This document shows, piece by piece, positions 876-56,770 of a stretch of 64,000 bases of DNA (its first letter is position 1; every line of letters starts with the position of its first letter). The DNA is from Atractiella rhizophila (taxonomy: Eukaryota), in NCBI GenBank assembly GCA_021432655.1, contig MU271427.1:1-64000 (forward strand), written 5' to 3'. The notes under the pieces are model-generated. The model did not search any database. It had not been told where the DNA came from and saw only the letters and a list, made by a program, of their open reading frames with translations. The position numbers and the translations under genes were made by a program.

Positions 876-1088
876 TGTTGGAAATCAACGGGCTGATGAG
901 CGAAGCTGAGTACGACTCGGTTACGTTTGGCTGAGCTCATGCAAACAGCAAACACGTGATGAGCACCATGAAATGGAATGTGTGTTTATATAGCTTACAG
1001 CAGTGGCAACTAGAAAGTAGTAGAACATTCCAGAAAACTAAAGAACTTTGCCACTGAGTGGCACGAAACTAGACTGCAAAATCCAACA
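876..1088 (-). mobile_element. Solo LTR of the family of the gag-only element at 5496-7137
   Basis: TGTTG...CAACA termini. The reverse complement is a diverged match to LTR 5496-5702. Flanked by 5-bp TSD CAACA (871-875, 1089-1093). Confidence 0.9.
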
Positions 1089-5008: not shown

Positions 5009-5495
5009 ATTTATTAATTGTTGGGACTAGTTCTCCTTATTACCCCCAGCGTTTACTTATACGGGTAAGCGAATTTCTATCGTGTGTCTAAATGTTTTTT
5101 GACCTTACATAGCATTGTTATCCTAATTGTCGCAGCCCGACCTCAGCCATCCTCCCAAGAAATATGGCCGGTGGGTATTCCCTTCGAAATCAGGCTGAAC
5201 GTAAGGATGATTCTTCTGGCACGTGGACTGGACTGGACTAATTAGAGCGCCATTCTAGGGGCAGCCTGGGCAAGTCAACAAAAGGATGTGCCAGGATGTG
5301 GAGCATGATTTTAGCAGAACCAACAGCAACGGGATATGTCAGAGGAACGGGAAGGCCACGAAGATAAGGGACACCCCCAAGAACCTGGAATTCGCTGAGA
5401 GACGATTCCTGGACATGTTTGCCGGCATTTCCATAGAGCATACGCTGTCACGACTACACAGTCTTGTGTCCAGACTGAAGGATGCTGAATGGATG

Positions 5496-7137
5496 TGTTG
5501 GATTTTGCAGTCTAGTTTCGTGCCACTCAGTGGCAAAGTCCTTTAGTTTTCTGGAATGTTCTACTATTTTCTAGTTGCCACTGCTGTAAGCTATATAAAA
5601 CACATAGAATTCCATTTCCTGGTGCTCATGCGTTTGCAAGAGCTCAGCCAAACGTAACCAAGTCGTACTTAGCTCCGCTCCTCAGCCCGTCGATTTACAA
5701 CACAAACGCATCCGGTTAGACCACCGTCACCAGTCCAGAAGAGCGGATCTGTACGACCCACGCGCCACCCATGTCGACCCACACTGTTGGAATTCATTCA
5801 CTCATCCGCGAAATTCCAAAGCTCGATGGAACGAACTATGCAGACTGGAAATTTGCTGTTACCCTCGTCCTGAAGAAATGCAATTGCTGGGATATCCTTA
5901 CAAGCACGACAGATGGTGTCCAGACAAGGACTGCATCCGATGAAACAAAGAGACAGCTTGAAGACTCACTTACAATAATTGGACTCAGCCTCGATCCGTC
6001 ACAGTTCATGTATGTTCGAAGCAGCACTACTGGTCCAGAAGCATGGAAAGCCCTGAAGGAGAAGTATGAGAAATCCTCAAAAGCGAACAGAATCACCTTG
6101 AAACGCGCATTTTACACGACAAAGCATGATTTCAGCGCCCCCATTGAACAATTCATCTCCCACGTCCTTGAATCAGCATCAAAAATGAAATCAATCGGCC
6201 TAACCCTGTCAGACCAAGATATTACAGATGTCCTGACATTCAACCTTGCAGAAACATGGGGAAGCCTCGCCAGCACGCTCATGGCCACGAAAGGGGAGCA
6301 GACAATTGATGAAGTCGTTTCAGCACTCAGGGATGAAGAGAGGAGAAGAGGTGGAATACCAGGAGAGATAGAGATAGCTGCAATGGCTAGAGCAGCGCCT
6401 AAATGGGGAAGGAAGGAACAACAGAGGGAGAATAGTCGAAGATTTGAACGATATTCAGAATCCCAGAATAACGGTACCTCACGAGCTTGTTGGATATGTG
6501 GCAATCCCACTCACATTGCTCGAGATTGCGACAGAAAAAGCAAAGCCACAGGAGAGTACACACCTAGCTATCAATGAAGCCTTGATAGATGCAGCTTTTT
6601 TAAAAAGAAGAAAAGAAGATTGAGGGGAGTAATAGTTGAATGGTCTCAAGATCCGGTGAAATTTGGCGAATGGAGGGCCGTGTATCATCTTCAGGCGTAG
6701 GAAGAAGATCTTTCATCGTTGGTGAAGCATCATGGGACAGCTATGACCTCGTATTGATGTGCCTTGAAGCTGGCAGAAGCAAGAAATCGGCGGAAGTTTT
6801 GATGAGTATTAAAGTTTGAGATCCCCTTGTTGAGAATTGAATTGACTCTTGTTTACCTTTCAAAATGACCTTATCGATTAACTTTACTTTCTATTGATTA
6901 CCTCGTGGCACTCCACAAGCCTGGGCGGAAGTGTTGGATTTTGCAGTCTAGTTTCGTGCCACTCAGTGGCAAAGTCCTTTAGTTTTCTGGAATGTTCTAC
7001 TATTTTCTAGTTGCCACTGCTGTAAGCTATATAAACACATAGAATTCCATTTCCTGGTGCTCATGCGTTTGCAAGAGCTCAGCCAAACGTAACCAAGTCG
7101 TACTTAGCTCCGCTCCTCAGCCCGTCGATTTACAACA
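5496..7137 (+). mobile_element. Non-autonomous gag-only LTR retrotransposon (1642 bp, Copia-type Gag)
   Basis: LTRs 5496-5702 and 6932-7137 (TGTTG...CAACA) are near-identical, with one 1-nt indel seen. TSD GGATG at 5491-5495 and 7138-7142; the paralogous site near 21965 has a single GGATG. Purine-rich GGGCGGAAG precedes the 3' LTR. No pol. Confidence 0.93.
5771..6577 (+). CDS. gag: Copia-type Gag (UBN2-like) with CCHC zinc knuckle, 268 aa, intact
   Basis: IPKLDGTNYADWKF N-terminus; AWKALKEKYEK motif; knuckle CWICGNPTHIARDC. Confidence 0.9.
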   Translation: MSTHTVGIHSLIREIPKLDGTNYADWKFAVTLVLKKCNCWDILTSTTDGVQTRTASDETKRQLEDSLTIIGLSLDPSQFMYVRSSTTGPEAWKALKEKYEKSSKANRITLKRAFYTTKHDFSAPIEQFISHVLESASKMKSIGLTLSDQDITDVLTFNLAETWGSLASTLMATKGEQTIDEVVSALRDEERRRGGIPGEIEIAAMARAAPKWGRKEQQRENSRRFERYSESQNNGTSRACWICGNPTHIARDCDRKSKATGEYTPSYQ

Positions 7138-7949
7138 GGATGGAACTGCCTGTATATGATACAGGTGATTACGCTTTCGACCGCATATGCGTCCTCGCGC
7201 TCAGGATCTCCGACGTAACGAACGCGGAATCGTGGGTCGTTTTGACCAAGATGGTACAGACGATGAAATTTGCTATTGAGGTATATGAGTGCGTTTTCTT
7301 AACATTTGTTCAGAATCGATTACAGAGACTACATAGGTGGGAGATGGCCCGGCCGCGAGACCAGAAGGCCAAGCGGCAGATGTTCAATCGATCCAGGGCC
7401 CACCAACATCTACTTAAGGTAATGGATAATCTGGACCTTCGATGGAAAGAAAAGAGGAATACCGAATTGAAACTAATTCAAGACTTTCAGATGTTTGAAT
7501 CAACTTTTGTTCTAGGCCCAAGACTATATCAAGCCTGTAGACAATGTGCGTTTACCATTTGGTTTTGCAGGACTGCAACTGATAGCACCGAGTTTCACCT
7601 CATATCCTGCTCATTTTCAGTATGGAGCCATCAAGCATCAAATCAATAGGAGATTTGGGACAAAACTCATGGATGCAGGTGCAGCATGCCATTGCTCACC
7701 CCAACCTATACAACAGTGACTTCGGTACCTACAAGGATGGCTGTACTTATGATTCTGGTAACAATCGTAATCGTCATACCTTGCACCGAACTACTTATAC
7801 ATTCACAGCTTTCATAGCTAATGGTCAACTCGACAAAAAAACGTGATACAACATCACCGATTCGAGAAATGCTTAATGGCTTGAAATTGCATGACACCAC
7901 CGTGTGCACGCCTTTGTCACAATCAGATCATAATCACAAAGCAACCAAA

Positions 7950-28540: not shown

Positions 28541-31403
28541 ATATGGCAATAGCAATTTCATCACGTCTTAAGTGTCACGTGTCACAGTTTCGTCGCTTCT
28601 GACCAGCTCTGCAACGTCATCCTCCAATTTCATCAGCTCTATTTGCAAACTCTGTAAGCTGAGATTTCCGAAGGAAGCGCGCAATGTGATCCTGAGCATG
28701 ATAAGGTCGTGTATCTCAGTATCTAGACAATGACAGCAAATATAAAAGCCCAGAAACCAAAATTCTGGTCCTAGTCCAACGCACGTGAGTAAGTCACTGA
28801 GTCGCGCCGTGATCACCAACACTCATCAACCAACCGCTCTCCCGAGCTCTCCCAGAGCTCTTCTTTCAACTCTCTTCGACCGCATCCTCTCTTTGCCACC
28901 AACTCCCCAACCCGAGAACACATTCTCTAACTGCAGCCACACCCACCAAAGCCAACGCATGACCTTCTTGAAGGAAATGGCACTAGAAGGCGGTCAGATG
29001 AGTAGCAACACCTTGCTAGACATGAATTTGGGTCTTGACAAATGTGCGAGCGCTGCGAAGTGCGAGATAACAAATAAGTGTGTGTTGCATTTAGTATGTA
29101 AGGGAACTACATTACCTGCGAAGTGCGAGATAACAAATAAGTGTGAATCTCGCACTTGCAGGTGAAAGGGTTTTATAGCTAAGGTCCCTGTGGCGAAAGA
29201 GAAGTTGCCACAGTTCCAGAACACGCTCGACGAAAGTGGAAACGCGCAAGTGCGCAAGTGGCGAAAGGAGGAGGCGTACGATTTTGTCAAACTCCCCCTC
29301 GCATCCTACTTTCCACTCATTCCAATTTCCTGCATAGCTCCATCTATCTTCAATCTCGAAACCCCCTTTGTAAGCACATCAGCAGGTAAGTCCTTCGTGT
29401 CCATATAGTGGATTTGGATTTTGCCGCTGATAACGCATTCGCGAGTGTAATGATAAGGGATGTCGATGTGCTTTGTTCGTTGACGGAAGATGGGGTTGTT
29501 AGCGAGCTGATGAGATCCTAGGTTGTCGCCGAAGATAGTTATTGGAGCGTCGATAGGGAATCCAAGGTCGTCAAGGAGAGTGCGGAGCCACGACGCTTCT
29601 CGAGCTGCAAATGAAAGGGTGACGTACTCGGCTTCTGTGCTCGAAAGAGTAACTATCGACTGCTTCTTGCTTCTCCATACGACAGCGCCGCCTGCGTTCG
29701 TGAAGAGTGTCCCGGAAATCGATTTCGATCGTGGCTGGCGGCGAAGTCTGAGTCGGAGTACCCAGTAAGTTCATTTCCTTCTCTGTGGTAGGTGATTTTG
29801 AAGTCCGTTGTGCCGCGTAGGTAACGGAAGATCCTCTTGATGGCTTTCCAATGCTGAGGTGAGGGGTTGTCCGAGAATTGGGCGACTTGGCTGACGGCGA
29901 ATGCAAGGTCCGGTCGTGTCGCTATCATGAGATAGAGGAGGGAGCCGACTGCTTCCCTGTACCGACCGTTCCAGGATTTTGGTATGTGTGCTCCTTCGTT
30001 TCCGCCTTCCCCTTCATTCGTGGCTGGTTCTAACTTCCCTCCAAGCTCGAATGGCGTTGCGGCGGCGTTGCAGTTTTTCATTTCAAACTTCTCCAGCAGG
30101 CGCTCTGTGTAAGCTTGTTGATCGATGGAGATTCCATCGTTAGACTGCGTGATGCGAATGCCTAAGAACTGGTGAGCTCTTCCTTCGTCCTTGAGTTTGT
30201 AGTGTTTCTGAAGCGCTTCCTTCACAGCTGCTGCTTCCTCATCATCCTCGGCCATGATGAGGATGTCGTCGACATATAGTCCTACGAGCTAGTACTTTCC
30301 TGTTTTCCCATCTCGTCTCGTGTAGATTGTGGCCTCTGACCTGCTTTGTCTGAATCCCAGCCTTCTCAATTTCTTATCGGCATCCCCGTTCCATACCCGT
30401 CCACTCTGGTGCAAGCCGTAGACGCCTCTCGTCGCTTTTATCACCCAATCAGGGTGTTCTGGGTCTTCCCAGCCAGGAGGTGGTCGAAGATAGACCGGTT
30501 TCTCAAGTTTACCATAAAGGTATGCCGTTGATACATCTACCATGTGTCCTGGCCACTTATTCTTTGCCGCAATGGATAGGATAAGGCGAAATGAGGGCAT
30601 GGAGAGGACTGGGGAGAATATCTCGTCGTAATCAACGCCTTCGCGCTGTGTGTACCCTTGTGCAACTACCCTTGCACGATATCTGACAGTCTCTCCCCCT
30701 GGACCTAGCTTTTCCCGCAGCACCCATCGTGACCCAATCACATTTTCCCCCTTTGGCAACGGCACCATCTCTCCAACGTCCCTTTCCCTCCACGACTCCC
30801 TTTCCTCATCAAAGGCGGCTTGCCATTCGACGGCATTCGGACCAGCGACAGCCTCTTCGTATGTCGGAGTGAGGTTGCGAGAGGAGGAGGCGACTGTGAT
30901 GCAGGCTACTGTGTCAGATAAGGGTGAGTTGCCGAAATACTTTGCTCTATTGTCTTTCTGAGCTTCCGCAGGTGTGCGCCATGTGCGCTGTGGGCGTCCT
31001 GGAGGCGGCAATGGTTCTGTTTTCGCTTTCGACGGCCCTTCGGTGGGTTTCTCCCCCTCATTAGGTTGTTCTCTTGTTACGACTGGAATTGATGCTGTTT
31101 CGGGAACAGGAGGCTCCGCTGGTTCGCTCGTTTGGACTTCGACAGGCTGTAGGAGCGTTGCGGGGTGCGTTTCATCGAATTGAACGTGTAGGTGCTTGGT
31201 CACTGATCCGTTCTTGGGATTGTAGATCCGATATGTTTTGCTTTCCCAATCGTAGCCGACCAACCTGCCCTCCGTTGATCGTGTGTCGAGTTTCTGTCGG
31301 TTTGGTTCAGGAGGGATCAGACTGTGTGAGTTCTGCATCCCAATACTCGCAGGTGGTCCACTGACGGTTTCTCACCGGTCCAGGCCTCGTACGGTGTCTT
31401 TCC

Positions 31404-32823
31404 TGTCAGAGTTTGGCACCGTTTTAAGCTGCATTCGTGCCACTGTCATTTGTGGCTCTAGTTTTCTCTCCCCTTTGCCGTTTCTCTCTTTTTGCCGAGT
31501 TCCTTAAGGTATAAAAAGTCCATTATAACTTCATTGTAATTCATTCCTTTCGACCCTTGGAATCAACAAATGGTAGCGAGAGAAGTTCGATTTACAAGCA
31601 CCTGCCCACTCGTAGCCACTTGATTAATACAACCATGTCCAATGCCAACCTTGACTCTCTCATTCAGTCAGTTCCCAAACTTACGGAAACCAATTATTAC
31701 GACTGGAAATTCGCTGTCTCGTTGGTGTTGAAGAGAGGTGGTTGCTGGGAAGAAGTGAGTGGAGTGGTGGAGGAGCCTTTGGCAGAGGAGACGAAGAAAC
31801 TGAAGAACTGGAAAGATGCAAACGAGGTTGGGCTGACGATCGTCGGATTAAGTGTCGATCCATCGCAATTCATCTATATCCGAGATTCAGCTACCGGGGG
31901 CAGCGGCATGGAAGGCTTTGAAAGACAAGTATGAGAAGAACAGCCGCGCAAACCGTATCACGCTTAAACGCCGTTTCTATAACGCGAAAACACGACCCCT
32001 CGAAGCCAATTGAGTCCTACGTTCAAGAAGTTTCTGCTAGTGCGTCGAATCTCAAATTGATCGGGCTCCAGATCTCCGATACCGATATTACGGATGTCCT
32101 CATTTTCAACCTCGCGGAGGACTGCGGGAACCTTGCTGGAACATTAATGGTGACTAAGGAAGAGTTATCCATTCAAGATGTTATTGGTGCTCTCAGGGAT
32201 GAGGAAAGGGAGAAGAGGAGGTTCAGGGGAGTCAAGAGGAGGAACTGGGGAGGCACTCCTCACGAACGCGAGAAAGGTTCAGAAGGCGTGATCACTCAAG
32301 TTCCGATCGACAAATCAATTGCTGGGTCTGTGGAGACTCCGGACATCTGGCACGAGATTGTTCCGAGAAGGCATTAGCGAAGAAGGATAGGTCGGAAGCG
32401 CGCATTACTGAGGCATTTTAATTGTGGAGACCTCAAGATCTGTCGAAGTTTGGCGCAAAAAGGCGGCTGGGAATCAATTGCAAAAGTGTGGCTTTGATCC
32501 TTCGACGTTGTGGCATCTGGGGTAAAGAGAATTGCTGGAATAAGGGGGAGTGAGGAGCTTTCAATTGTTATTGGAGTGTGTTTCTTTTTTTAAAGTTAGT
32601 TTCTTTCGTTGGGTACCTTTAGTTCCATCGTGGCACCTCATTTGCTCAAGGGGGAGTTTGTCAGAGTTTGGCACCGTTTTAAGCTGCATTCGTGCCACTG
32701 TCATTTGTGGCTCTAGTTTTCTCTCCCCTTTGCCGTTTCTCTCTTTTTGCCGAGTTCCTTAAGGTATAAAAAGTCCATTATAACTTCATTGTAATTCATT
32801 CCTTTCGACCCTTGGAATCAACA
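31404..32823 (+). mobile_element. Second gag-only LTR retrotransposon (1420 bp), nested antisense in the Copia pol
   Basis: 165-bp LTRs 31404-31568 and 32659-32823 look identical. TSD TTTCC (31399-31403, 32824-32828); PBS TGGTAGCGAGAG at 31571; PPT AAGGGGGAG; no pol. Confidence 0.93.
31635..32420 (+). pseudogene. gag: Gag with CCHC knuckle, frameshifted; homologous to the Gag at 5771-6577
   Basis: VPKLTETNYYDWKFAVSLVLKRGGCW; SDTDITDVLIFNLAE; ALRDEER; knuckle CWVCGDSGHLARDC near 32320-32361 in a shifted frame. Confidence 0.85.
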
Positions 32824-35309
32824 TTTCCTTCAAGGGCAGAGGTTGGGCGCCGGTTAATGATGTGGATGGCGGCCATGGCGAGCTCCCCCCACAACTTCTT
32901 GGGGAGGTCGGACGTGTGTAACGTGGAGCGGATGAGGGCGGCGATCGTGAGATTGAGGCGTTCGGCAACGCCGTTCTGCTGGGGTGTGTAAGCAGCTGTG
33001 TGCTCGTGTTTGATGCCGTGCAACTTGAGGTATGTCTTGAACTCATTGCTTGTATATTCGCCGCCGTTGTCTGATCTTATTGTTTTGATCTTCAGGCCAG
33101 TTTTGAGTTCGACTTTCGCTTTGAATTCCTTGAACGCGGAGAATACATCGGATTTGTACTTCAGTAAGTAAATCCACGTTCTTCTTGTTGCGTTGTCCGT
33201 AAAGCTGAGCCAGTATTCAGCTCCTCCGAACGATTTGACGGGCGCAGGACCCCATACGTCGGTGTGAATCAGTTCGAGCTTTTCCTTTGCGCGTTCGGTA
33301 GGGCCGGAGGGGAATGGGAGCTTTCGTTGCTGGCCAAGGAGGCATCCAGCGCACGGTGAGTGGTGATCCTCCTCTCCTATCTCTAGCCCTCTAACCATTT
33401 CCTCTTCTTGTAGAAGCTTGAGGCTCCCGCTTCCGATGTGATCTAAACGGTAGTGCCAGACGTGTGAGGAGGCAGGCTTTGTGGCAGCGGTAAAGTTTGT
33501 GCTTGCACCGTCGTTTGTAGTGATTATTGATGCATCTAGCCTTCGCAGTCCACCCTCTGCCACAATCTCAGCCACCACCGTACCATCTCCCTTCGCCACA
33601 TTTCCTCGCCTGTGTGCTGAGAACACGACGTCGAAGCCTCGAGCATTCAACTTGTCGGTGGAGAGGAGAGCACAATCGATTTCGGGGTCATAGAGAGTGT
33701 CAGTAATTTCAATTTCTCTTTCTATTCCTTTGATCTTTGTTAATGCTTTGACAGTGCCGATGCCAATTGCTTGCGTGACGACGCCGTGGGAGGAGTGGAT
33801 GCGACGTGTGTGGGGCTTGAGTGAGGAGAACCAATTTGCGAAGGGCACGATGTGGTCCGTGGCAGCGGAATCGACATAGATCCCATCACGGTGTGTCCCT
33901 TCCCCTGTAACCGTGTGGAAAGCCTCTGAGATCTTGGCTTCTCCAGGCTTCTCTCCTCCTTCTCTCTTCTTCTTGCGGCAATCCCGCTCCCAATGTCCCT
34001 CGATGCCACAGTAGTGGCACTTTCCCCGCTTCTTCTTGCTCTTTGACTTCACTCCACCACTCCCACCGTTCGGTTTGGTGAAGTGCTTCCCTCCTCGCCC
34101 TGTTTTCGTTACTAACGCTTCTGAGGTAGTCTTGGACTCAGGATTCCTACGGTCCGCTTCGAGCAGGAGACGGGAGGCGACATATGAGGATGTGAAGTCA
34201 GAGGGTGGCGACGGCGTTGAAGGGGGAGACGACCTCGATCCAGGATTGTGGGAGTGAGATGAGGAGGAGCATTGCGATATCCTCATCGTCAGTCTTGTCT
34301 CCCATCGCTTTCAACTCCTGTCCCATGGTTCTGATTCGGTTTACGTGCTCCCGCATAGATTCACCTTCAACATAACGCACCGTGTAAAGCTTCTGGCGGA
34401 GCAGTACGCGCGCTTGTCGGTCCTGAGTCTGGTAGAGCTCCTTGAGCTTGTCCCAGACCTCTTTAGGTTTCTCAACTTCGATGTCCCGGATATCTGTGAG
34501 TACATGGTCCTTGCATGCTTCGATGATGATTGAGTAGGCTAGGTATGCTCGCTTCGTCCAATCCCTCTGTGACGCTTCGATTGTGTCAACTCTCGCGACA
34601 TTCTCCGGTTTCGCAGCCTCCGCTCCCTCGAGACTCGCTGGCTTGGGATCCGTTCCTGCAACGATCCCCCAGCAGTTCCTTCCGAGGAGCTTAGCCTGGA
34701 CTCGAAAGTACCAGGTATGGTAATTTTCCCGTCTTTCGAGTTTCGCGATAGTCGATGCAGCAATGAACGATGTGTCATTACCTTCAGACATCCTGGGCTC
34801 GTGAAGCGACGGAGAATTTGGCTAGATATGAATGTATCTCTCGCTACCAATTGACAAATGTGCGAGCGCTGCGAAGTGCGAGATAACAAATAAGTGTGTG
34901 TTGCATTTAGTATGTAAGGGAACTACATTACCTGCGAAGTGCGAGATAACAAATAAGTGTGAATCTCGCACTTGCAGGTGAAAGGCTTTTATAGCTAAGG
35001 TCCCTGTGGCAAAAGAGAAGTTGCCACAGTTCCAGAACACGCTCGACGAAAGTGGAACGCGCAAGTGTGCAAGTGGCGAAAGGAGGAGGCGTACGATTTT
35101 GTCATATCAGACATAGCATCAACATTCAATCATTCAATTCACAAGTGTAGACTGAGACCTCCAAGAGTGAGGAAAGCAAATAGGCACGTGCAAGTGAAAC
35201 CCATCTTTGAAACCACCATCCTTATAGAAAAAGCACGACGGGTTTGACCATGACTCACGCATGTACTTTTGAGCACTTCTCTCACCACTCACAACACCCC
35301 TGCCAGTAA

Positions 35310-35550
35310 TCTGAGCATACCATCAGAATACGCGTGTCGGCGCCTTTCGAACCGTATACAACAAAGCCTATTTGAAAGACGAAAAAAAGTTGTTTTCCTT
35401 ACTGACTCAATTGACTCCTTGGTCCACAACAACCCCATCAAAATTCTGAGCATACCGCCAGAATACGCGTGTCAGCGCCTTTCCAATCGTATACAATAAA
35501 GCTTATTTAAATATAAAAAATACTTGTCTTCCATGACTGAGTCAAGTGAC
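35310..35550. repeat. Diverged direct repeat (~135-bp period) upstream of the Helitron ORF
   Basis: CTGAGCATACC..CAGAATACGCGTGTC.GCGCCTTTC.AA.CGTATACAA.AAAGC.TATTT at about 35311 and 35446. Confidence 0.75.
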
Positions 35551-35621
35551 TGACTGCGGCACTTTGACAAAAATTTCCTTACCTACTCAAATAAGCCCAC
35601 AAAGTGAAGAGTTTGCGTGAT

Positions 35622-36179: not shown

Positions 36180-39100
36180 AGTTTATATATGATCATCGAT
36201 GGGTAGTGCCTTTTAATGCTTGGGTCCTGAGGAAGTTTCTGGCTCATATCAACACTGAGATCTGTATCTCAATTCGTTCAGTCAAGTATATATTCAAATA
36301 CGTATACAAAGGGCCGGATAGAGCACAATTAGTCATAGAATCAGATTTCAGTGGAGCAAGAGAGCCAGTGGATGAGATTAAAGAGTATTTAGATGCACGA
36401 TATGTGGGTGCTTCAGAAGGTTTGTTCAGTCCATTCCTCAAAGGTTAAGGATTAAGTATGATTATAGCATGCTGGCGGATTTTCCACTTCAAGCCTCATG
36501 ATCACTCTCCAACTGTCATTCGACTGAGCATTTATCTTCCAAATCAACAGATGGTCATTTTTAATGCAGATGATGGTCAACCTGAAGATATACTTTCACG
36601 AAGAAATGTCGGAAAAACAATGCTTAGCAAATTTTTCCAATTCTGCTGTGATTCTCCCCAGGTCTCCCGATCGTGGACCTATTCTCAAGCCCCTCGACAT
36701 TTGGTCTGGCAGAGTAATCCAAAGTGCTGGAAGATACGTGAGAAAGGCAATGCTATTGGTCGGATATTTTACATTGCGCCGTCACAAGGGGAGCTCTTTA
36801 TCTTCGACTACTTCTTCACAAGATCCCAAGTCCTAAATCTTTTGAGGACATTCGTACAATTGATGGTCAAGTTTACGAAACATTCAAAGCAGCCTGTGTG
36901 CGATCAGGTCTACTGGAAAGTGACGAAGAATGGGATTTTTGTCTGGAAGATGCAAACGCAATCAAATGAGGATCAGCAATTCGTTCTCTTTTTGTCTACA
37001 TTTTGGTCTTTGGAGTTCCAAGCGAACCATTACAACTGTTTCGAAGACACTATGACAAGCTCAATGACGATTGTGCACATCTTCTGCAAACAGTTTATGG
37101 AATTGCTGCACCTTCTGAAGACCAGATCCGAGACTTATGCCTTATTGAGCTAGAGAACCTGCTATGTGGTCTAGGCAAGACACTAGAGGAGTATAGGTTG
37201 CCGTTACCTGCTCACAGGTTTGCACGATGAGGTGGAGAGACAAGAATAATTGGAGAAGAGCTGGCATACAACATTACGGAGTTAGAGCAATGTCTTGATA
37301 GGGATCTTCCTCTTATGAATGAGGATCAACGACATGCATACGATACAATCATCGAAGCCTGGCAGAATGGCACCAGAGGACTCTTCTTTCTTGATGGGCC
37401 TGAAGGAACTGGAAAGACTTTTGTTCAGAATCCTATACTGGCAAGAGTAAGATCATCCAAGAAGATTGCACTAGCAGTAGCCTCTTCTGGAATTGCTGCT
37501 ATTCTGCTTGAAGGTGGTCGTACTGCTCATACGCAATTCAAGATTCCCCTAAATGCAGATGCGCAATCAGTTTGTGGTATTTCCGCTCAAAGTGATCATG
37601 CAAGGCTATATGTCGAGGCAGAAATTATCCTGTGGGATGAAGCCATTATGAGTGATCGCCTGTCTGTCAGCTGTGTGGATCGGTTGGGGCAGGACCTTAA
37701 AAAGGATTCAAGACCATTTTGGAGGAACACTTACGGCTTTCTGTGGTATGATACTTCCCTTTAAGTAGTTCTTTATTAACATACTCTTCACAGGCGATGG
37801 CAGACAGTGTCTTCTGGTAGTGCCAAATGGAAGCCAAGCTCAGATTGTGGATGCTTGCATCATTAATTCTTACTTCTGGCCGAATGTTCAAGTCCTGCAT
37901 TTGAAAACCAATATGCGCCTTCTTCGCGGCCAACAGGAAATGACACCAGCCGAATTTCAGCATGCGACCAGATTTGCCCAGTGGCTCCTTGATGTTGGAA
38001 ATGATCTCACTGATAATCCATCGGACAATGGATGTGGAGCCTTAACGATACCAGATGGGTCTATTATTCCATCCCATGAAGGACTAGATGGTCTGTTACG
38101 CTCAATTTACGGACAACTAGGTTCTCTACCAAATATCCCTGCTCTGAGCTTCCTTCAAGAATACTTCTGGGTTCATATGATTCCAGCAGCAAAGAATGTG
38201 GATGTGGATGGCATCAACGATCGCTTGATTCGGTGGCTCGAATCCACAGGAGATCGGGTATATTATAGTGCAGATCAAATTATAGATGACGAGGGAGATC
38301 TCAGAAATCGCTTCTCTGTTGAGTACCTGAATACCCTGGAGATCTCTGGATTCCCTTCACATTGTTTACACCTCAAGACCGGTGCACCCATCATTCTTCT
38401 GCGAAATCTCAATCCATCTGCTGGCCTGTGCAACGGCACGCGGCTCATTGTCACTCAGCTTCTCCAACGAGTCATCGAAGCAACCATCATTACAGGTGCA
38501 CACAGCGGCGAATCAGTTCTCATTCCTCGAATCGGCATTGACAGTGTAGTATCAAACTAGCTTCCTTTTCAATTCAGGCGCTTTCAATTCCCTGTGCGCT
38601 TAGCGTTTGCCTTAACTCTGAATAAAGTGCAAGGAAAATCTGTTGGACATGTGGGTTTGTACTTAGAGTCCTCTCCTTTCTCTCATGGGCAGCTTTATGT
38701 TGGTCTTTCACGGGTTTCAAATGCGAACAATTTATGAGTATTGGTCAAAACAAAGCAAGGAGAGGAAAAACAAGCAAACAGATAGTGTAGTTTAAAAAGA
38801 TGAAGAATGGGACTTTTACCTTGAGGAAGCCAGCTCAGTCAATAATGGTCACACTATGCGGTCTCTTTTTGTCTATATCCTTCTTTTTGGTGTCACAAGT
38901 GAACCAAGAAGGTTATGGGACAACCATCATCAATGACTTAGCGATGATTGCAAAGGCTTACTGCAGACAAAGTACGGTATAGCCAATCCGCACGAAGAAC
39001 AAATCATCAGTCTCTGTCTCCTCGAGATTGAAGATCTCTTACAGGCTCACACAAAGTCTCTTTCGGATTTTGGACTACCCCAACCGACAGAGAGGTTAGA

Positions 39101-40681
39101 AAGGTGGGGGGGTGAGACAAGAATAATTGGTGAAGAGCTGGCATATGATCGTCTGCAACTTCAAGAGCATCTCAACAGGGAGGTGCTGTTGCTTAATCAG
39201 GATCAACGTCATGCTTATGACACCATCATAGCAGCTTGGGAAGAGGGAAGTGGAGGTCTGTTCTTCATTGATGGGCCAGGAGGGACAGGAAAGACTTTTG
39301 TTGAAAACTTACTACTTGCCAAAGTTCGTTCAACTGGGAAGATTGCACTCGCTGTGGCCTCCTCAGGCATTGCTGCTATCCTGTTGGAAGGGGGACGAAC
39401 TGCCCACACATGCTTTCGAATACCATTGGACCTTGAAGCAGATTCAATCTGTGGTGTTAAGGCTCAGAGTGATTATGGACGACTTTGCTGTCAGGCAGAA
39501 TTGATAATATGGGATGAAGTGGGTATGAGCCATCGTTGGTGCTTTGAGGCAGTCGATCGGATGCTGAGAGATATGAGTAAAGTAGATGCGCCTTTTGGCA
39601 GAGTAATTTTTGTTCTAGGTGGTAAGTGGGATAATTCAAATAGTTCACCTCTGATAAATAGATTAGGTGACATGCAACATTGCCTCTCTGTCATTCCCAA
39701 GGCTTCACGTGCACAGATTGTTGATGCATGTGTCATCAACAGTCCCTTTTGGCCAGCAGTTACGATCCTTCCTCTCACGGTCAACATGCGTCTTCTCCGA
39801 CATCTATCCTGGGCTTAACACCATAACTGAAGACCTATATTGTGATCAACTGAGGCAATACTTCCAAGAGTGCATGGTCCTCACTGCTCGAAATGTTGAT
39901 GTCGACCTGATAAACAATCAGCTTATCCGAAGATTTATCTCCCGACAGGAACGAATTTATCAGTGCTGATCGTTTCATGGATGACAATGAGAATGTTCAG
40001 CAAGGCTTTATGGTCGAGTACCTTAATACTGTCAATGTTACAGGCCTTCCTCTTCATCGCTTGCATCTCAAAGTCGGAGTCCCATCATCCTCATTCAAAA
40101 CCTCAACCCTTCTGCTAGGCTCTGTAATGGTACATGTTTGATCGTCACCCAGCTACTCTCTTGCATCATCGAGGCGACAATTGTCACAGGTGCATTCGCA
40201 GGCAACTCAGTTCTCATTCCACGCATCGCTTTGGATAGCAAAGTCTTCAATTCATTTCCCTTTGTCCTACGTCGGTTTCAATTCCCAATCAAGTTAGCAT
40301 TCTGCCTCACTATCAACAAGTCACAGGGTCAGTCAGTTGAGACTGTCAGCCTATACTTGGACACCCCTGTGTTTGCTCATGGACAACTTTATGTCGGATT
40401 GTCAAGAGCTTCAAATGTGAAGAATCTTAGAGTTTATTTACATCAAGTGGAAGGGACTGATAATAAGAAAACTGAGAATGTAGTATATTGAGAAGTTTGA
40501 ATCTACAAGAACGTATGCAAATAGACTGACAATACTCTTCACACTTGACAATTGCAGGACAGGTGTAACTCTGATCTCGCCAAAGGCGAGGCCCCACGCA
40601 GTGGCTGCCGGAGGCTGGGGTCCAAGGGGTGAAGCCCCTGGTGGGGGGGATGCCCGAGGGACAAGGGCACTGACACACTTG
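36180..40681 (+). mobile_element. Helitron remnant: Rep C-terminal region, two PIF1 helicase modules and a 3' hairpin end
   Basis: WVVPFN..LRKFLAHINTEIC..SVKYIFKYVYKGPD; DEIKEYLDARYV; FFLDGPEGTGKTF (37315) and FFIDGPGGTGKTF (39183); LRNLNPSAGLCNGTRL; TINKSQGQS; HGQLYVGLSR. GC hairpins precede CTTG|T at 40678-40682. Confidence 0.92.
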
Positions 40682-55109: not shown

Positions 55110-56770
55110 GAACAATATTGCTAAAACAATGTTGACAGAGTTTTCACATATTGTCAGGAAAACCTCAACATTACTGCAGACCTTATTTATCCTAAGGCTC
55201 CTCAATTCCTTACCTGGAAGTCAGGCTCCTACTGTTGGAAAATCCGGGAGAGGCAAGAAGCTATTGGCCGTATCTGCCATGATGTGGTGTCACAAGGGGA
55301 GTTATTGTATATTCAAATGGTTCTGCATCAAGTCACCAGCCCAAAATCTTTGAGGATATCCAGACAGTAGAGGGAACTGTCTGTTAGACGGTCAAGGCTA
55401 CATGTGTGGCTCTTGGGCTGTTAGAAAGTAACAAAGAATGGGATTATTGTCTCAATGAAGCCAGCACATTTAAAATGGCTTGTGATGTAATCTCTGTTTG
55501 TCTACACTCTGCTATTCAGAGTTGCCAGCAAACCCAGAAGATTATGGAACAGCCATCATGAGCGACTTAGTGAGGATCGTAAATACCTTTTACGGACAAA
55601 ATATGGTATAGACAATCCAACAAACGAGCAAATTATCAGCTTCTGTCTCCTCAAAATTGAAGGTCTTGTCCAGGCTCATGGTAGATCCCTAGACTTTGGA
55701 CTACCACAACCCGCAGAGTGACTAGAAAGATGGGGAGGTGAGACAAGGATTATTGGAGAAAAACGTGCATATGATCGACCACTACTTCAGGTATGAATTC
55801 AGACAGAGGAATCTGGACCAACATCATGCCTATGACATGATTGTAGAAGCATGGCAAAGTGGAAATGGTGGATTATTTTTATTGATGGTCCAGGAGGGAC
55901 TGGAAAGACTTTTGTTGAAAACCTACTACTTGCCAGGAGTCCTCCCTCTCACAGTGAATATGCTCCTGCTCCGTTGTCAGGCCGAAATGAGCAGCCCAGA
56001 CTTTGCTATTGCCTCTGGCTTTGCTGAATGGTTGTTGTCAGTTGGTAATGCACCAACCGATAACCCGGAAGACTGTGGCTGTGGTTCATTGACTATGAAG
56101 GACCAAACAATAGTCTGGCGATCCTATGGTCTGGACGGTCTCCTTGACTGACATCTACCCTGGACTGAGCACCATAACACAAGATGTCAACGCAATCGAG
56201 TTGAGGCAACTTTCAAGAGCGCATGGTCCTTACGGCCCGGAATGTTGATGTTGACATCATAAACGATCAGCTTATTTGACAATTCGTCTCCTGACAGGAA
56301 TGAATCTACCTTACTGCTGACCGATTAATGGATGACAGTGAGAATGTTCAACAAGGCTTCACAGTTGAATACCTCAATACTCTCAATATGATGGGTCTCC
56401 CTCTTCATCGTCTTCATCTCAAAGTTGGAGCCCCTATCATTCTAATACACAACCTCAATCCTTCAGCTGGGCTCTGTAATGGTACATGGTTGATCATCAT
56501 CCTGGTGCCCTTATAAATCATTGAGGCTACCATCATTACAGGCTCATTCACAGGCACCTCAGTCCTTATCCCACGCATTGCATTGGATAGCAAGTTATCC
56601 AATTCATTCCCGTTTACCTTACAGCGGTTTCAATTCCCTGTCAAATTGGCTTTCTGTCTCACCATGAACAAGTCACAAGGCCAGCTGGTGGAGACTGTTG
56701 GATTATATTTGGGCACACCAGTTTTTGCATATGGACAACTTTATGTAGGACTTTCTAGAGTTTTCAAGAA
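55110..56770 (+). mobile_element. Third Helitron helicase remnant, internally deleted
   Basis: AYDMIVEAWQSGNGGLF; LHLKVGAPIILIHNLNPSAGLCNGT; QFPVKLAFCLTMNKSQGQ; YGQLYVGLSR. Most similar to the 38960-40490 module. Confidence 0.88.

Follow-up and report, generated by a model that had tools for sequence, protein, structure and literature searches.

A candidate self-priming site in a gag-only, Copia-type LTR retrotransposon from the fungus Atractiella rhizophila

Introduction

In Tf1 of S. pombe and related elements of the Gypsy group, the mRNA's 5' end anneals to the primer-binding site (PBS) and itself primes reverse transcription, and to our knowledge self-priming has been demonstrated only in Gypsy elements of this Tf1 type. 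Among Copia elements, we know of it as a computational prediction in one plant lineage. A survey of plant elements notes that self-priming had been proposed for two Ty1/copia families, Houba and Osr-1, and gives the TAR lineage as one in which it is predicted (PMC6317226), and given these precedents the first-pass annotation of the DNA described here was wrong to treat self-priming as undescribed for Copia lineages. Fungal Copia elements of the GalEa type are described as having a Conserved Hairpin Site instead of a primer-binding site, and the 9 bp that directly follow the LTR form a conserved motif (PMC5445492). Our search of the literature found no case of self-priming in a fungal Copia-type element and no relevant match to the literal sequence studied here.

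The element that we describe lies in a 64-kb window, by which we mean the whole stretch of DNA analysed (positions 1 to 64,000 of contig MU271427.1, assembly GCA_021432655.1). Tf1-like self-priming, with reverse transcriptase and RNase H provided by an unseen partner, is in our judgement the best reading of this locus, and one that we hold to be somewhat probable.

Results

A recently mobile element that codes for Gag alone

Judged by its sequence, the element is a non-autonomous, gag-only LTR retrotransposon of Copia type. Its features, together with those of a solo LTR of the same family elsewhere in the window, are the following.

876-1088, minus strand: solo LTR of the same family, about 88-89% identity
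5491-5495, no strand: target-site duplication, 5' copy, GGATG, read from the sequence
5496-7137: the whole LTR element, 1.64 kb, coding for a Copia-type Gag alone
5496-5702, plus strand: 5' LTR, 207 nt, TGTTG...CAACA (TGTTGG...TTTACAACA), one of the repeat pair
5592-5600, plus strand: TATA box TATATAAAA in the LTR, from the sequence
5628-5636, plus strand: candidate self-primer ATGCGTTTG, the putative start of R; exact reverse complement of 5703-5711
5629-5656, plus strand: predicted local hairpin, 5629-5637 with 5647-5656, in both the minimum free energy (MFE) and centroid structures
5662-5757, plus strand: predicted interrupted U5:leader helix, 5662-5693 with 5727-5757, with the primer site in the enclosed loop, from folding
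5703-5711, plus strand: candidate primer-binding site CAAACGCAT, from the first base after the LTR onward, by sequence and complementarity
5771-6577, plus strand: gag ORF, 268 aa, with a CCHC knuckle and without pol, from ORF call and Pfam
6923-6931, plus strand: polypurine tract GGGCGGAAG, adjoining the 3' LTR, read from the sequence, with a presumed function
6932-7137, plus strand: 3' LTR, 206 nt, with a second copy of the 9-mer at 7063-7071, the other of the repeat pair, by BLAST
7138-7142, no strand: target-site duplication, 3' copy, GGATG, directly after the 3' LTR

The marks of a Copia-type LTR element are present (TG...CA ends, a target duplication of 5 bp and, just ahead of the 3' LTR, a polypurine tract), and the protein matches PF14223 Retrotran_gag_2 in Pfam at E 5e-26 (91.6 bits against a cut-off of 27), in agreement with the first-pass annotation, which had named a Copia-type Gag between LTRs that begin with TGTTG and end with CAACA. 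The zf-CCHC match within Gag falls slightly below its Pfam cut-off (E 0.001; 19.5 bits against 20.8). From the gag stop to the 3' LTR there are just 354 bases, all non-coding, and pol, in which integrase would precede reverse transcriptase, is absent; because the element is a gag-only derivative, its superfamily placement comes from Gag alone. The nearest Gag relatives are 39-51% identical and are named from Agaricomycetes. The relatives P0001, P0002, P0005, P0008, P0009 and P0011 are coded on short contigs (1.0-1.9 kb), and a search of 2113 candidates for longer proteins with a related Gag gave none at E 1e-5 or better, a result that counts as weak evidence. A Gag profile (A1) gave 55 pattern matches in viral_contigs and 42 in genome_contigs, none of which was confirmed.

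The element was also compared with contigs from four runs. X1 is a DNA run, and X2, X5 and X8, which carry three organism codes and come from three studies, are RNA-like by our guess. The comparison is with contigs only, and the differences, loose ends and contig pieces given below are those among the matches listed. Relative to contigs of all four runs, the window copy of gag has one extra A near 6535, past which the next frame continues for about 20 more residues. As a separate observation, the depth of X1 over 5710-5895 is 2-3 times that over the rest of gag, a hint that the leader is common to other elements.

The two LTRs are 99.5% identical over 206 nt by BLAST, the single gap lying in the A-run after the TATA box, and the empty site is seen in X1, where one contig runs from 5490 straight to 7138, the two sides having 5 letters in common at the joint. 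This contig shows that the insertion is polymorphic and, with the 5-bp GGATG duplication, bears out the earlier claim of recent movement. Since the element moved recently, its primer site must work.

A 9-nt complement at the expected start of the transcript

The first-pass annotation had singled out an exact 9-nt complement directly after the 5' LTR, and the sequence confirms it: the LTR is followed without a gap by 5703-5711, the exact reverse complement of 5628-5636 (9/9 bp), and 5628-5636 begins 36 nt downstream of the first T of the TATA box at 5592. Pairing ends at 9 bp, where 5627 and 5712 are both C. In dinucleotide-preserving shuffles of the LTR, a complement of at least 9 nt at offset 0 arose 21 times in 20,000, rising to 37 in 20,000 when offsets 0-3 were allowed and to 234 in 20,000 for at least 8 nt. 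Calculated analytically, the expectation over the whole LTR is 0.0009, and over the interval 20-50 nt after the TATA box it is 0.00014. These estimates agree with the rough chance of about 0.001 that was first put forward. The window's two elements with tRNA-type sites, taken as controls, reach just 5 and 6 nt (offsets 0-6). The same 5' segment has a second partner inside the LTR, which the first-pass annotation did not mention: 5629-5636 can pair with 5649-5656 over 8 bp, including one G-U pair.

Every copy observed over the primer site has nearly the same sequence at that place, and no differences are listed in 5703-5711 for the crossing contigs of X2, X5 and X8 (records 9, 17 and 25). Loose ends of X1 contigs point to an LTR subfamily with other intervening letters, in which the TATA box and the 9-mer are about 34 nt apart by manual count. 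A diverged relative, X8 record 23, has 27 differences and 4 gaps over 5560-5725, with none listed in 5623-5657; differences apparently go unlisted within about 30 nt of aligned ends, a zone that in this record takes in 5703-5711. The solo LTR at 876-1088 has TGTTG on either flank and differs at the 9-mer, with insertions precisely at that site.

If the element self-primes in the manner of Tf1, transcription would start some 30-36 nt after the LTR TATA box and the RNA would begin at or just before ATGCGTTTG (5628-5636), the 5' end then folding back on CAAACGCAT (5703-5711), from the first base after U5. The U5:leader helix (5662-5693 with 5727-5757) would hold the primer site in a loop, RNase H acting in trans from an autonomous partner would cut the RNA after the duplex, and the freed 3' OH at G5636 would be extended across U5 from A5702. 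Plus-strand strong-stop synthesis would later copy the primer back into DNA, and with the primer recopied in this way the exact complementarity would be renewed in each cycle.

A host RNA as a possible primer

The alternative that survives best is that a host RNA, either an internal part or half of a tRNA or some other small RNA, primes at 5703 onward and that the match to 5628-5636 is coincidental. We consider this unlikely, if far from negligible. It has precedents: in the plant survey, half-tRNA sites are limited to Ty1/copia lineages (PMC6317226), and the fungal Copia element FunCo1 is reported to use an internal region of tRNA-Lys (PMC5445492). Against it, the complementarity would have to be a coincidence, for which the chance is about 0.001, falling to about 0.00014 when only the expected start window is counted.

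A conventional tRNA site is absent. No TGG follows the 5' LTR, as had been observed from the outset, and there is no site there for a tRNA 3' end. The window's two other Copia-type elements both have TGGTAGCGAGAG two bases after the LTR, so we know which primer site is usual in this host, and the gag-only element lacks it. The 64-kb window contains no tRNA genes, and Rfam searches with models that included tRNA returned no family match on 5600-5850 or 5703-5745; these were also run with 5703 as the end of the searched stretch, which lets a cut tRNA align, and even then the site had no match. The exact 17-mer 5703-5719 occurs at 20 loci in a metagenome collection, none of which (0/20) contains a tRNA or an Rfam family or has flanks in common with the element, in a scan that is insensitive to complementarity shorter than 17 nt. 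Four of the 20 loci have a common unrelated sequence of 58-59% G+C. On 5600-5850 Rfam gave only a sub-threshold match, snoRNA-like and on the minus strand at 5640-5675, which scored 17.4 bits where the gathering score is 50 (E 0.34) and was rejected as chance.

Transfer RNAs have U33, a purine at 37, a pyrimidine at 32 and a G10:C25 pair. By these rules, no register of the site's complement fits an anticodon arm cleanly, and the idea that the complement is a tRNA 5' half running from the D-arm to the anticodon was set aside, as its register is atypical and Rfam lends it no support. What keeps a host primer in play is scope: the tRNA search covered the window, Rfam and the metagenome loci rather than the host's tRNA set, and because differences near the aligned end of X8 record 23 are unlisted, that diverged relative gives no reading beyond 9 nt there.

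RNA folding, transcript starts and other possible roles for the complementarity

When 5628-5715 is folded alone, the MFE structure is the duplex of the 5' end with the primer site, a duplex whose own energy is -10.5 kcal/mol. In the nested fold of 5628-5775, the 5' 9-mer instead pairs locally with 5649-5656 and the long-range duplex has a pairing probability of 0.0; forcing that duplex costs 6 kcal/mol (-27.0 versus -33.0). The local hairpin, which competes with the long-range duplex, has a pairing probability of 0.99 for a start at 5628. The duplex energy of the U5:leader helix is -27.5 kcal/mol; shuffles average -19.3 (sd 3.7), and a fraction of 0.01 of 500 shuffles did equally well. The helix is predicted to cross the duplex of the 5' end with the site. 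In the diverged relative (X8 record 23), the arms of this helix are strongly altered or missing. The third duplex of a Tf1-like 'pretzel', in which sequence just upstream of the primer site would pair with the LTR, was not seen in the predicted folds.

Among the contigs listed for X2, X5 and X8, five RNA-like ones start inside the LTR, two of them at about 5643 and the others at about 5632, 5640 and 5642. Past the end of the LTR, four of the five (records 10, 15, 16 and 24) pass into unrelated flanks, and record 9 continues into the element's leader. This is the pattern expected of transcripts that start inside LTRs, and starts at 5632-5643 fit a transcript start near 5628, although contigs cannot prove a start. 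Coming from the 5' LTR side, none of the RNA-like contigs listed spans the complete 9-mer, as the earliest starts at about 5632 and none extends over 5628-5631. One of the five carries 20 loose letters fused at 5643, which we take to be a sequencing adapter. Should transcription in truth begin at 5643, the 9-mer would belong to U3 and the self-priming model would fail. The LTR subfamilies also re-converge at 5640, so assembly breaks could mimic transcript starts.

It is conceivable, but in our view improbable, that the complementarity serves a regulatory or architectural contact within the RNA and that the primer is something else. Such a contact might occlude the primer site, or, if transcription begins after 5636, the 3' copy of the 9-mer (7063-7071, in U3) and the 5' site might circularise the RNA. 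Contacts between the 5' and 3' parts of the RNA are known in Ty1 and Ty3. Several observations lean in this direction: the adapter-fused end at 5643, together with starts at 5640-5643, would leave the 5' 9-mer outside the RNA; X2 record 14 crosses the 3' copy; and the second partner of the 5' segment, 5649-5656, suggests a structural switch. Against it, some other primer would still be needed for a site that starts exactly at the first base after the LTR, and one RNA-like contig starts at about 5632, within the 9-mer.

Finally, that the match is pure chance and this copy arose with no functional primer site, for example by recombination or segmental duplication, is very improbable: although 1-in-1000 events will turn up when many LTR elements are scanned, a clean duplication of 5 bp, LTRs that hardly differ and a contig with the empty site are the marks of integrase-mediated insertion, and the same gag-only structure with its primer site is present in runs of four organism codes.

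Discussion

Self-priming, as the first-pass annotation had proposed it, remains the best reading in that the site abuts the LTR, its complement lies at the start expected from the TATA box, RNA-like contigs begin at 5632-5643 and no tRNA-like match turned up in the window, in Rfam or at the 20 metagenome loci; the transcript start itself is a predicted one. More tentatively, and with slightly more doubt than belief, we suggest that a gag-only, Copia-type lineage in mushroom-forming fungi self-primes with a 9-nt primer, independently of the Tf1/sushi group and of the plant TAR lineage. If so, the gag-only element would rely on its partner's RNase H to recognise and cleave an RNA duplex that is not encoded by the partner, and as the duplex is in cis and the enzyme in trans, cis structure and trans enzyme would have to co-evolve across two elements.

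Were self-priming to be borne out, a recently active fungal Copia-type element would represent a third, probably independent, origin of the mechanism, and at 1.6 kb, with Gag as its only product, it would offer a compact system in which to ask which requirements of self-priming lie in cis and which in trans. The matter has a practical side too: fungal elements of this kind would be overlooked or wrongly judged by LTR-annotation pipelines in which a tRNA-type primer site is obligatory.

How does the locus compare with described systems? The half-tRNA-primed Copia elements (Drosophila copia, Ty5, Osser and Bianca) are, like this one, of Copia type and without a TGG site, but here no tRNA-like complement was found in the window, in Rfam or at the 20 metagenome loci. 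GalEa offers a closer likeness, as it too is a fungal Copia element without a tRNA-type site and with a 9-bp motif after the LTR; in its description, however, that motif forms a palindrome when the final A of the LTR is included, and no complement to it was found in the LTR (PMC5445492). A hairpin site of the GalEa type can be rejected here, since A plus CAAACGCAT (10 bases) is not palindromic and a complement to the site is present in the LTR. The plant TAR lineage belongs to the same superfamily, and its self-priming is a prediction of the same type, made from complementarity between LTR and primer site (PMC6317226); the host here is a fungus, and the element has no reverse transcriptase or integrase by which its lineage could be placed.

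The closest parallel in mechanism is with Tf1 and Tf2. Membership of the Tf1/sushi group itself can be set aside, as the element has no Ty3/gypsy chromovirus pol with a chromodomain integrase and its Gag is of Copia rather than Gypsy type, although it may work alike. It differs further in that, with no pol, RNase H must come in trans; in that the duplex is 9 bp rather than 11, with no third duplex found and a competing local hairpin present; and in that cleavage and priming are here predictions only. The likenesses are nonetheless specific. Tf1 RNA forms a three-duplex 'pretzel' in which one flanking duplex, between U5 and sequence after the site, crosses the central one, as the U5:leader helix is predicted to do here (PMC10085805), and in the Tf1/sushi group of Ty3/gypsy chromoviruses, where self-priming has been shown by experiment, the primer site likewise abuts the 5' LTR and complements the expected 5' end of the RNA (PMC10085805, PMC7175516).

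A recently mobile gag-only Copia-type element

The element under study, a 1.64-kb unit at 5496–7137, is organised as follows.

5496–5702: 5' LTR, TGTTG to CAACA
Between the 5' LTR and the ORF: leader, 68 nt
5771–6577: ORF of 268 aa, with a Copia-type Gag (Pfam PF14223, E 5e-26) and a CCHC knuckle
6932–7137: 3' LTR, TGTTG to CAACA

The Pfam match bears out the assignment of the Gag to the Copia type in the first-pass annotation. Beyond the ORF lie 354 non-coding bases terminating in the purine run GGGCGGAAG. The element, which is non-autonomous and gag-only, lacks protease, integrase and reverse transcriptase. The A-run at 6533–6538 is one A longer here than in contigs of all four sequencing runs compared, so that Gag stops just past the zinc knuckle; the neighbouring frame continues for ~20 residues through a C-terminal motif resembling that of related Gag proteins, and the extra A may be a genuine mutation or an assembly error in the homopolymer.

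That the element moved recently had been proposed from its near-identical LTRs (99.5% over 206 nt, the sole difference being one base in the run of A that follows the TATA box) and the clean target duplication GGATG at both flanks, and is now further supported by the DNA sequencing run X1, one contig of which joins 5490 to 7138, skipping 1647 bases with 5 letters shared at the joint. This is the empty target site, and the insertion is therefore polymorphic. A second element-free form in X1 joins 5495 to 7164 with 22 other letters in between; together with the clean empty site it implies at least three alleles or haplotypes at the locus. The LTR family has many copies, since the LTRs in X1 have a summed depth some 10–30 times as high as the gag body or the flanking sequence. 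Recent movement requires a functional primer site at 5703 or next to it.

Complementarity between the leader and the LTR

The bases at 5703–5711 (CAAACGCAT), which begin immediately after the LTR, are the exact reverse complement of 5628–5636 (ATGCGTTTG), a 9-mer within the 5' LTR that starts 36 nt past the first T of TATATAAAA at 5592. The complementarity ends at 9 bp, and no TGG follows the 5' LTR, both the exact match and the missing TGG-type site being as originally read. The original chance estimate of about 0.001 also holds up: when the LTR was shuffled with dinucleotides preserved, 21 of 20,000 trials produced a complement of at least 9 nt at offset 0 and 37 of 20,000 produced one at any of offsets 0–3, and the analytic expectation is 0.0009 for the whole LTR and 0.00014 for the region 20–50 nt past the TATA box.

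Two other Copia-type elements in the window serve as controls, and a solo LTR of the target family is also present.

31404–32823: second gag-only LTR element, identical 165-nt LTRs, target duplication TTTCC
About 29036–35104, minus strand: degenerate full-length Copia, ORFs matching gag, zinc knuckle, integrase and RVT_2
876–1088, minus strand: solo LTR of the target family, 88–89% identical, TGTTG on either side

The second gag-only element is nested within the degenerate Copia; in the present copy, stops interrupt its gag frame, and along two short segments its gag has ~68–74% DNA identity to the target gag. The degenerate Copia has LTRs of about 253 nt and a frame split over at least five ORFs, and no clean target duplication was seen at its drawn ends. 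Both of these control elements carry TGGTAGCGAGAG two bases past the 5' LTR (as the classical TGG-type site at 31571–31582 and at 34838–34849, respectively), a classical site for a tRNA 3' end, which we take to be that of initiator tRNA-Met. The ordinary host primer site is thus visible in the window and absent from the target element. The longest complements between post-LTR bases and LTR in the two controls are 5 and 6 nt. The solo LTR has lost its internal part and has insertions exactly at the position of the 9-mer. Further diverged direct repeats (64–77% identical) lie at 38387–38686, 40081–40380 and 56433–56732, at 37293–37532 with 39170–39409, and at 35290–35551; the window contains 25 N.

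The main rival to self-priming, in our judgement an unlikely one, is that a host RNA serves as the primer. There is no tRNA gene in the window, and Rfam returned nothing tRNA-like in 5600–5850 and nothing in 5703–5745, whose limits would let a tRNA truncated on its 3' side align at the end of the stretch. An exact scan of a metagenome collection for the 17-mer at 5703–5719 gave 20 loci, none of them with a tRNA, an Rfam family or the flanks of the target element. These results disfavour a widely conserved RNA with at least 17 nt of complementarity, although the scan leaves room for an RNA specific to the host or one with a shorter match. Four of the loci (L002, L008, L018 and L020) share one sequence of 58–59% G+C around a chance 17-mer match, unrelated to the target element and with neither a tRNA nor an Rfam family.

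Transcript ends, conservation and RNA structure

Runs X2, X5 and X8, which we guess to be RNA and which carry three organism codes from three studies, cover the target element from within the 5' LTR to within the 3' LTR and leave its flanks uncovered. Five of their contigs start at about 5632, 5640, 5642 and 5643 (two contigs), and four of the five pass the LTR end and enter unrelated flanking sequence, the pattern expected of read-out from solo LTRs. In one X2 contig 20 loose letters, presumably sequencing adapter, are fused at 5643, pointing to the end of a discrete molecule. The first bases of an RNA are commonly lost during library preparation, so starts at 5632–5643 fit an RNA start a few bases upstream if these runs are RNA, and such a start also fits the usual spacing from TATA box to start. 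Contig starts are weak evidence, as contig ends cannot prove a transcript start, no contig covers 5628–5631 from the 5' side, and contigs could break at 5640 through graph branching, where the subfamily of the solo LTR re-converges with the target LTR. Were the true start at 5643, the 9-mer would fall in U3 and the self-priming model would fail. X2 and X5 each contain one 53-nt contig that jumps from 5784 to 6488 with 703 gag bases absent; the two sides share 7 letters at the junction, and the contig could stem from a deleted copy, RNA splicing or faulty assembly.

Crossing contigs of all three runs (records 9, 17 and 25) preserve both the gag-only structure and the primer site. Over 5560–5725 a diverged relative in X8 (record 23) shows 27 differences and 4 gaps, of which 19 differences and 3 gaps are listed within 5658–5691 and none within 5623–5657, the block that contains the 9-mer and a local hairpin; the 8 unlisted differences probably lie within ~30 nt of the aligned ends (5560–5588 or 5697–5725).

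When 5628–5775 is folded, the 5' 9-mer pairs preferentially with 5649–5656 nearby (8 bp, one G-U), and a long interrupted helix is predicted between U5 (5662–5693) and the leader (5727–5757), leaving the primer site in a loop. The fold as a whole is not unusual (z -1.53; 11 of 200 shuffles fold equally well). In a nested model the duplex between 5' end and site can be forced only at a cost of 6 kcal/mol, because it crosses the U5:leader helix; with 5628–5715 folded alone, that duplex is the MFE structure. The U5:leader interaction reaches -27.5 kcal/mol, matched by a proportion of 0.01 of 500 shuffles. As U5/leader stems are also present in tRNA-primed retroelements, the predicted helix does not discriminate, and self-priming would be compatible with it.

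Relation to known elements

At E 1e-5 or better the Gag has 18 relatives, all stand-alone proteins of 175–321 aa, several on contigs of just 1.0–1.9 kb; those with a named source come from Agaricomycetes (Agrocybe, Ephemerocybe and Trametes) and are 39–51% identical. These sources point to an Agaricomycete as the probable host. No longer protein carrying this Gag, and none fused to Pol, came up in the search, a weak form of evidence. Seen here only as stand-alone proteins, the family hints at a long-lived gag-only lineage in Agaricomycetes, where such units seem widespread.

On balance we lean, by a modest degree, towards Tf1-like self-priming as the best-supported mechanism for the target element. 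According to PMC10085805, Tf1 self-priming requires a three-duplex "pretzel" in which the central duplex pairs primer with primer site and two flanking duplexes pair site-adjacent sequence with LTR sequence downstream of the primer. In the target element the central duplex is predicted to be possible, together with one flanking duplex that crosses it; a third duplex was not found. The first-pass annotation knew of no self-priming in Copia lineages; this claim of novelty fails because, as described in PMC6317226, Houba and Osr-1, two plant Ty1/copia families, were earlier proposed to self-prime, and self-priming has been predicted for the whole TAR lineage and 12% of surveyed plant LTR elements. 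No report for a fungal Copia-type element appeared in the literature searched, whose coverage mostly excludes subscription journals. The interest is moderate and lies in the fungal Copia-type setting and in a gag-only, trans-dependent element. The fungal GalEa Copia elements, according to PMC5445492, are without a primer site and have instead a hairpin site that is palindromic and has no complement in the LTR, an arrangement that differs from the one seen here.
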